64,000 bases of DNA, from positions 15,855,959 to 15,919,958 of the forward strand of contig CM119268.1 in assembly GCA_051294375.1 (NCBI GenBank). The letters run 5' to 3'. The notes under the pieces are model-generated. The model made no database searches, was not told the DNA's origin, and was given only the letters and a program-made list of their open reading frames with translations. Position 1 is the stretch's first letter; every line of letters starts with the position of its first letter. The translations under genes were made by a program, and so were the position numbers. Below, one piece after another: positions 48,959 to 49,975 of this stretch. The stretch is from Paraspadella gotoi. Lineage: Eukaryota; Animalia; Chaetognatha.

Positions 48959-49113
48959 CGGAAGTTGGAAAACCATTTGACGAGCTGCGCGGTGTTGCTG
49001 CGGTTGAACTTGACGTCGGGGAAGTAGATCTTGATAATGGCGGATGAAGGGTAGCGGGAGTAGAAGAACATCAGCTTCGCCTTTCGCAGATGCATCGGCG
49101 TCAGAACTGACGT
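48959..49113 (-). CDS. pros: Prospero/PROX homeodomain exon (intact copy)
   Basis: Manual translation of the minus strand gives [59 protein letters not shown], the atypical Prospero homeodomain. The exon is 155 nt and ends in phase 2, so CG plus the T of the exon at 11530 gives CGT (Arg) and restores WFSNFREFYY. It is preceded by an AC acceptor and a U12 branch site. It is missing from the ORF track because it is too short. Confidence 0.95.
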
Positions 49114-49134
49114 GTGCAGCGTCGTCAAGGAAAA
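49114..49134 (-). other. U12-type (minor spliceosome) branch site and AC 3' splice site
   Basis: Minus strand reads TTTTCCTTGACGACGCTGCAC|ACG. TTCCTTGAC matches the U12 branch consensus TTCCTTRAC, with the branch A 12 nt from the terminal AC. The position matches the known AT-AC intron of prospero/PROX1. Confidence 0.88.
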
Positions 49135-49257
49135 CTCGGATATTTTTTTTTTTGGCGCGTTTGAAGCAGCGTACTTTGCAGCATTCGTAGCAGCGTACTT
49201 TGCAGCATTTTGGGCATCGTTCGTAGCAGCGAGCTTAGCAACATTTATTTCAGCATA
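49114..49257 (-). CDS. pros: Putative alternative 5' extension of the homeodomain exon (long isoform, U2 acceptor)
   Basis: gtttgtcacccAG|TAT opens a 144-nt stop-free frame continuous with the homeodomain: [48 protein letters not shown]. The ending SLTTLH resembles Drosophila Pros-L SLTPLH. Confidence 0.5.
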
Positions 49258-49975
49258 CTGGGTGACAAACTTAAACGTACTTCAACGCTCAAGTATATAA
49301 ACAAATTTAAGACGAAAATATTTTAAAATATTGAAATATAACTAAATGAAAGGTAATAAATATATCCTCCAAAGGCCAATTTCTTTCGTACAATTTAACT
49401 AGTTAAGAATCGTTCACCTCACAAAACCTTCCGCCTCAAATGAACGCGATTTCATCTTTTTGCGTCGAATTCGAGGAAAGTCGAAAATTCTTTTCATTCC
49501 TTGCGCCACTTCCCTTTTTCCTTTTCATTTCAGCGTCGTCGTCGTCGTCGTCGCGGCATCGGTCGCCAGGCGAGAATAGATTTCTAAATAGTCGTCGTCA
49601 TCGTCTTCTTGAAATTCTCAGTCAATATCCTGAGACTCACCTGAGACTTTTTGCCAATTTTCAAAACGCCTCGACTTCGCCTCTCAAAAAAAAAAAAAAT
49701 ACTCGGAACAAAAAATGTCGCAGCTTTTTCCGCGCAAAAAGCCTTCTCTTTCCAATCCAGTCTACCCAGGCTACCAGGGTACCAGGCGTTTTTTCCCCCT
49801 TCTTCCATGTCAATTGCTCAAGCCCTTTCCTCTTCAGCCTCTTTCCTCTGGCCACCTTGCCCCGTCGCCCCCTCTCCCTTTTCTCTATCCTCTGCTTCGT
49901 GTCTTCTTCTTTTCCGTTATTTCTTTTTTGGCGTCGATTACACAAACAGATTTTCGGGTAAGTTCATCGATCGTC

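Follow-up and report, generated by a model that had tools for sequence, protein, structure and literature searches.

In Drosophila, the intron that precedes the homeodomain codons of prospero is a twintron, in which a U2-type intron is nested within a U12-type intron and the resulting protein is 29 aa longer (PMC3291851, PMC3564746, and PMC8329584). The locus considered here raises the question of whether another animal carries such an arrangement. We analyzed a stretch of 64,000 nucleotides, hereafter the window, for which an original prediction had proposed that the animal keeps the switch between major and minor spliceosomes, with a 48-aa extension at the N-terminal side of the homeodomain. 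We find instead that the locus most likely harbors an ordinary ancient minor intron before the prospero homeodomain and not a Drosophila-style switch; the features on which this reading depends are collected in Table 1.

Table 1. Features of the prospero/Prox1 locus in the 64-kb window, listed in descending order of position
Feature	Coordinates	Strand	Evidence and remarks
Second indel-ridden copy of acceptor region and exon	56432..56712 (approximate)	-	Same differences as the copy near 44 kb; lies in the 8.9-kb repeat
Proposed U2 acceptor AG (CAG), weak candidate	49258..49259	-	55% pyrimidines over -25..-4; next AG 10 nt further upstream; no contig
Stop-free intron end, 144 nt, putative 48-aa extension	49114..49257	-	Degenerate tandem repeat of 12-nt period within; no homologue; most likely intronic
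U12-type branch site TTTTCCTTGAC; its A at 49125 is the presumed branch point	49124..49134	-	From the sequence; 11 nt from A to exon
Minor-intron AC acceptor, in use	49114..49115	-	X1 contig departs from the window at exactly 49113, then carries 29 letters of upstream exon
Homeodomain exon, prospero/Prox1, 155 nt	48959..49113	-	GT donor at 48958-48957; PF05044; X1 contig identical over 155/155 nt, both ends at splice sites
Indel-ridden copy of acceptor region and exon	43930..44210 (approximate)	-	95% identity; nearly all differences are 1-nt deletions, also in the conserved homeodomain
Next coding exon (Prospero domain)	11287..11530	-	37.4 kb downstream as assembled; tblastn; matched at its start by the opposite end of the X1 contig
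Last coding exon with stop codon, SPNWM motif	10792..10881	-	Predicted from sequence (tblastn, boundaries)

The identity of the gene is clear. A Pfam search assigns the exon that follows the AC to the homeo-prospero family (E 3.4e-26), and tblastn within the window shows this domain spread over three exons, which makes the gene a member of prospero/Prox1. The intron at this position is well known. It is listed as a U12 AT-AC intron in Drosophila pros (intron 2) and as a U12 intron in human PROX1 (Table 2 of PMC2831892), the fly intron is confirmed as a minor intron (PMC13550442), and the prospero intron is described as one of two minor introns retained in all insect and vertebrate genomes analyzed (PMC3291851). 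The intron in the window shares with these entries its position before the homeodomain codons, a U12 branch site and an AC end; unlike them, it is known from its 3′ end, with its donor lying beyond the window. In the assembly its length comes to at least 14.9 kb, some of it duplicated sequence. A search of the 64-kb window itself returned neither the upstream exon nor the donor.

To assess which junctions are used, three runs (X1, X2, and X3) were compared with positions 48880-49480, of which only X1, with RNA-like data at a depth of 6.45, proved informative; the matches from X2 and X3 are prospero sequences of other animals at ≈90% identity or short chance pieces. A single X1 contig of 388 nt is identical to the window over the homeodomain exon and continues for 204 letters past one end, opening with the start of the next coding exon, and for 29 letters past the other. 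These 29 letters lie outside the window and join the exon at phase 0; their last codons read YDGIQ, the same ending as in the protein P0003, the one close relative found (see below). The AC that had been predicted directly before the homeodomain codons is thus not only present at 49115-49114 but also spliced, with the contig leaving the genomic sequence exactly where a junction to the AC was expected. The U12 branch site was likewise correctly placed at 49134-49124 of the minus strand: it agrees with TTCCTTRAC near the 3′ end of the intron, and its 11-nt spacing lies within the 11- to 13-nt optimum given in PMC3584512. The combination of U12 branch site and AC is more than chance, as confirmed by the spliced contig. 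The intron ends in AC at phase 0, and with a consensus branch site 11 nt away, inside the optimum, it is best read as U12-type. We infer from these signals that its removal depends on the minor spliceosome, which would give splicing at 49113 as the sole regular product. The pairing partners of U11/U12 would be the branch site and an AT donor located beyond the window, and the AC 11 nt downstream of the branch A would be chosen by its distance. The end of the X1 contig hints that the first base of the intron is an A.

The remaining claims concern the 144 nt upstream of the AC, which are likely plain intron. The CAG with its AG at 49259-49258 is indeed found 144 nt upstream of the exon start, the frame between the two is free of stops, and the branch site is translated as F-S-L-T, as originally proposed. 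The frame is open for 56 codons, continues upstream past the CAG and reads FSLTTLH into the homeodomain. We evaluated the significance of this reading with an orthologous set of acceptors. Of 80 prospero loci on metagenome contigs, 49 entered the comparison as distinct genomic acceptors in which a U12-like branch site is present; many of these are near-identical relatives and thus not independent of one another. The other 31 loci were dropped as duplicates, as spliced contigs or for want of the motif. The branch site falls in the three phases in 23, 20, and 6 of these 49 acceptors, and all six that share the phase of the window read Leu-Thr. One of them (L002) reads SLTH followed by an in-frame stop, three codons after the LT. 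The SLT reading is automatic for a U12 branch site at this spacing and is not clearly above chance. A donor of the ATATCCTT type follows a long open frame as ATATCCT in 19 of the 21 control loci examined. ISF and SLT-x-x-H in prospero models are the U12 donor and the branch site read as codons and are no sign of a twintron. The window shares with the Drosophila twintron the same intron and branch-site spacing, hence the same SLT-x-x-H read-out, and this likeness is limited to features of any prospero U12 intron at this spacing.

Several further properties of the control loci are of note in their own right. Like the window, 32 of the 49 acceptors end in AC, whereas 16 end in AG and one in AA (L006); in the AG-ending acceptors (the set L024-L048, L079, and L080) the U12 branch site is positioned further back, 21 nt from CTT, and these AG- and AA-ending acceptors possibly represent subtype switches of the prospero intron in paralogues or lineages. 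In L023 (9920-10000), the entire U12 intron is 81 nt long and stop-free in frame, such that ISF to SLTSLH is a read-through of the whole intron, and its retention would add 27 aa without a second spliceosome. Exon structure also differs among the loci: an intron following NQIE in L022, L023, L040, and L079 is absent from the gene in the window (about 11284-11530), and WKKQ and IYK are separated in the window by a 405-nt intron (10881-11287) that L022 and L023 lack. Seven long, non-repetitive open reading frames at 3488-28381, in or beyond the 37-kb intron, gave no Pfam match above the cut-off.

When the first 123 nt are shuffled, the frame stays open in only 4 to 9% of cases (3.7% with dinucleotide and 8.6% with mononucleotide shuffling, 20,000 trials each), and frames of at least 41 codons are uncommon in orthologous acceptors, being found in two of the 29 controls without a stop in the branch site, one of which is the 81-nt intron of L023. 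The extension also has a raised GC content (45%, as compared with 27% upstream of it and 20% downstream of the exon). These observations count against a plain intron. The GC rise begins ≈20 nt inside the extension, not at the CAG. Counted over all frames, the 144 nt contain only four stop trinucleotides, and the interval from 49234 to 49128 is free of them; a tandem repeat with a period of 12 nt and 3.4 copies occupies 49166-49206. The extension looks coding because of this stop-poor repeat and because a U12 branch site at this spacing always reads Leu-Thr. Changes among the repeat units are distributed over the three codon positions as 4/3/6, which is not significant (p 0.24). Moreover, 48 open codons precede 16 to 17% of unmasked positions in the gene's own long intron, and 1340 of 13,904 (9.6%) and 82 of 1702 (4.8%) intron positions are preceded by an open frame that contains an in-frame CAG or TAG at a distance of ≥100 nt. 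The open frame is thus mildly unusual, not compelling, and does not clearly exceed chance. Positions 9810-9825, ≈1 kb past the stop codon, match 49207-49222 in the putative extension exactly over 16 nt on the same strand. This match was considered as a repeat; it extends poorly, gives no convincing repeat and is probably due to chance.

The acceptor itself fares less well. It had been described as preceded by pyrimidines; pyrimidines are present, but the tract is weak, at 55% as compared with 73 to 91% at the two real U2 acceptors of the gene, both downstream, for which the nearest AG lies 32 nt (pyrimidine fraction 0.73) and more than 43 nt (0.91) away. The predicted junction at 49257 has no contig in the three runs, of which X1 alone is informative; over 49114-49480 as a whole these runs yield no contig except for short chance pieces at the exon edge. 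The X1 contig, furthermore, is unbroken at 49113, where a long form would merge, and runs through the exon into the next one, as expected for a plain intron. This evidence comes from one low-depth contig set from one run, and rare forms drop out of contigs. The proposed second acceptor is likely a chance occurrence.

We next asked whether the extension is found in proteins. With the extension plus exon as query, the matches covered the homeodomain and, of the extension, its final part at most: none of the best 120 of 1143 matches carries an Ala-rich extension; the first 23 residues of the extension are unmatched among the best 150 of 370 matches, none of which starts before residue 24, and the extension has no Pfam match. 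The sole close relative, P0003, is 94 to 95% identical and of the short form, so that the expectation of a long isoform kept in relatives is not borne out. Identity over the next exon is 95% with P0003 and at most 76% with named animals. A search with residues 1-75 of P0003 for full-length close relatives returned six distant proteins only, and the ESM Atlas yielded only prospero clusters of a generic kind, below 0.9. The short form accounts for 29 of the 30 homeodomain-bearing members listed in seven spiralian clusters; the listing covers 15 of 200 oyster and 15 of the 16 mussel members, and any long forms could fall into separate clusters. Among the 48 listed members of these clusters, 15 end shortly after ISF without a homeodomain, corresponding to read-through of the donor. 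Inserts of the ISF...H type occur in spiralian gene models from Pinctada (P0131) and Crassostrea angulata (P0315), and gene finders that avoid AT-AC introns could create such inserts.

In a homeodomain tree (53 rows, 162 columns), P0003 has a long branch and falls together with spiralians and chelicerates in a group that the tree leaves unresolved, and the lineage is for this reason read from the C-terminal motif. The Trp of this motif (NW) is shared by the window, P0003, and 22 of 22 named spiralians, whereas Phe is found in 18 of 20 arthropods and the motif is absent in two; the two sets were hand-picked from named matches, with echinoderms, hemichordates, acoels, and arrow worms outside the comparison. 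On this residue, the host is not an arthropod and is likely a spiralian. A decapod crustacean, which the microsatellites had suggested, was rejected in view of this motif and of the identities over the next exon. A twintron at this locus would probably have arisen independently of that of insects, which speaks against the notion that the animal keeps one by descent. The candidate 3′ extension also differs from that of Drosophila in its length of 144 nt and its unrelated sequence, as does the host in its spiralian-type C-terminus.

The principal alternative is a true twintron, in which the major spliceosome would remove a GT-AG intron nested in the AT-AC intron, with the CAG at 49259-49258 as its acceptor, and thereby insert at least 48 Ala-rich residues before the homeodomain. 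The 56 open codons, the raised GC content and the in-frame CAG are all in keeping with it, as is the end of the X1 contig, which halts 29 nt into the upstream exon; together with a shared first A this makes a 30-nt overlap, as would fit a second path at the donor. We take contigs of this type to be built from 31-mers, for which an overlap of 30 is expected at a fork. Read-through of the donor without a homeodomain is, however, common in spiralian records and accounts for the fork equally well. Coupled cryptic 5′ and 3′ sites are common around minor introns in mouse (PMC6717393), and spiders have both isoforms. Set against these points are the extension without a contig, the absence of a contig break at 49113, the weak acceptor, the lack of a homologue and the automatic SLT. 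Starting from a low prior outside arthropods, this reading gains from the open frame and loses from the weak acceptor and the missing RNA, and we regard it as unlikely. The predicted major/minor switch with a 48-aa extension is unsupported: neither an RNA contig nor a homologous protein matches it, the acceptor is weak and the frame features are at chance level.

The spider records deserve separate mention. Stegodyphus dumicola has named prospero isoforms that differ in the presence of an 8-aa ISFL...MH insert. In Nephilidae, some records, one of them on a 3.6-kb contig, carry a 9-aa version of the insert, and another reads ISFL-R into the intron (P0016, P0361, P0362, P0044, P0356, P0358-P0360, P0011, and P0038). 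These protein sequences suggest that nested GT-AG sites may exist in prospero outside insects. The twintron arrangement has been called limited to insects in a comparison of insects and vertebrates (PMC3291851), and the spider long forms indicate that long forms are not so confined. No twintron of prospero outside insects appeared among the papers listed in the literature searches, and the main text of PMC10639083 makes no mention of prospero, PROX1 or a twintron. As it stands, the locus in the window matters little, adding one more animal that retains a well-known minor intron. Were a spiralian-type animal to have independently evolved a major/minor switch that adds at least 48 Ala-rich, repeat-derived residues at the homeodomain N-terminus, which we consider improbable, the prospero intron would become, with insects and spiders, a recurrent hotspot for twintron origin. 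A real long form would mean that a twintron arose convergently beyond the arthropods in a gene for neural fate, and would offer a way to distinguish between twintrons as regulated switches and as steps in U12-to-U2 conversion.

Very unlikely, in our estimate, is leaky cryptic splicing, in which a slow minor intron remains unremoved and the major spliceosome occasionally uses a nearby AG, giving rare, unregulated products. Seven AGs fall inside the open frame (49136, 49175, 49199, 49235, 49259, 49271, and 49281) and could serve as fallback acceptors. In mouse, alternative events around minor introns most often involve cryptic sites (PMC6717393); unlike in mouse, no such product is observed at this locus in the contigs of the three runs (one informative), and most of the AGs lack a pyrimidine tract, with fractions of 0.36 to 0.55 for the four scored. 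It is scarcely credible that the 144 nt or their frame arose by mis-assembly of a triplicated region, even though its duplication lies between 25-N gaps, both of the other copies have frameshifts and the extension contains a run of 11 As, since the exon of the 49-kb copy is identical to the RNA contig, and the other copies share the sequence order and the 11-A run and carry deletions that also strike the conserved exon, like read errors.

An ordinary minor intron remains the most likely reading of the 49-kb copy, and two additional observations complete the picture. The first is a 3667-nt AT-AC prospero intron from another animal (L001, 6334-10000). Its donor is followed by 118 open codons, ATATCCTT recurs in frame 243 nt into the intron, and the AC is preceded by 71 open codons that include in-frame CAGs. 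No GT[AG]AG donor was found in its open part, and the locus is either a chance occurrence or a better candidate for alternative minor splicing. The second concerns the assembly. The window contains three copies of the acceptor region and exon, two of which had been missed in the original prediction; the copies near 44 and 56.5 kb are likely unpolished long-read duplicates from assembly. They reside in an 8.9-kb repeat (39887-48666 versus 52437-61241, 97.9% identity) beside 25-N gaps, and a further pair of near-identical blocks, 1-2230 versus 5919-8160, also ends at such gaps; we infer that these blocks are overfilled assembly gaps. Segments 17330-18242 and 29780-30825 are 84% alike and may be a dispersed repeat, and tandem repeats and Ns together make up ≈23% of the window.
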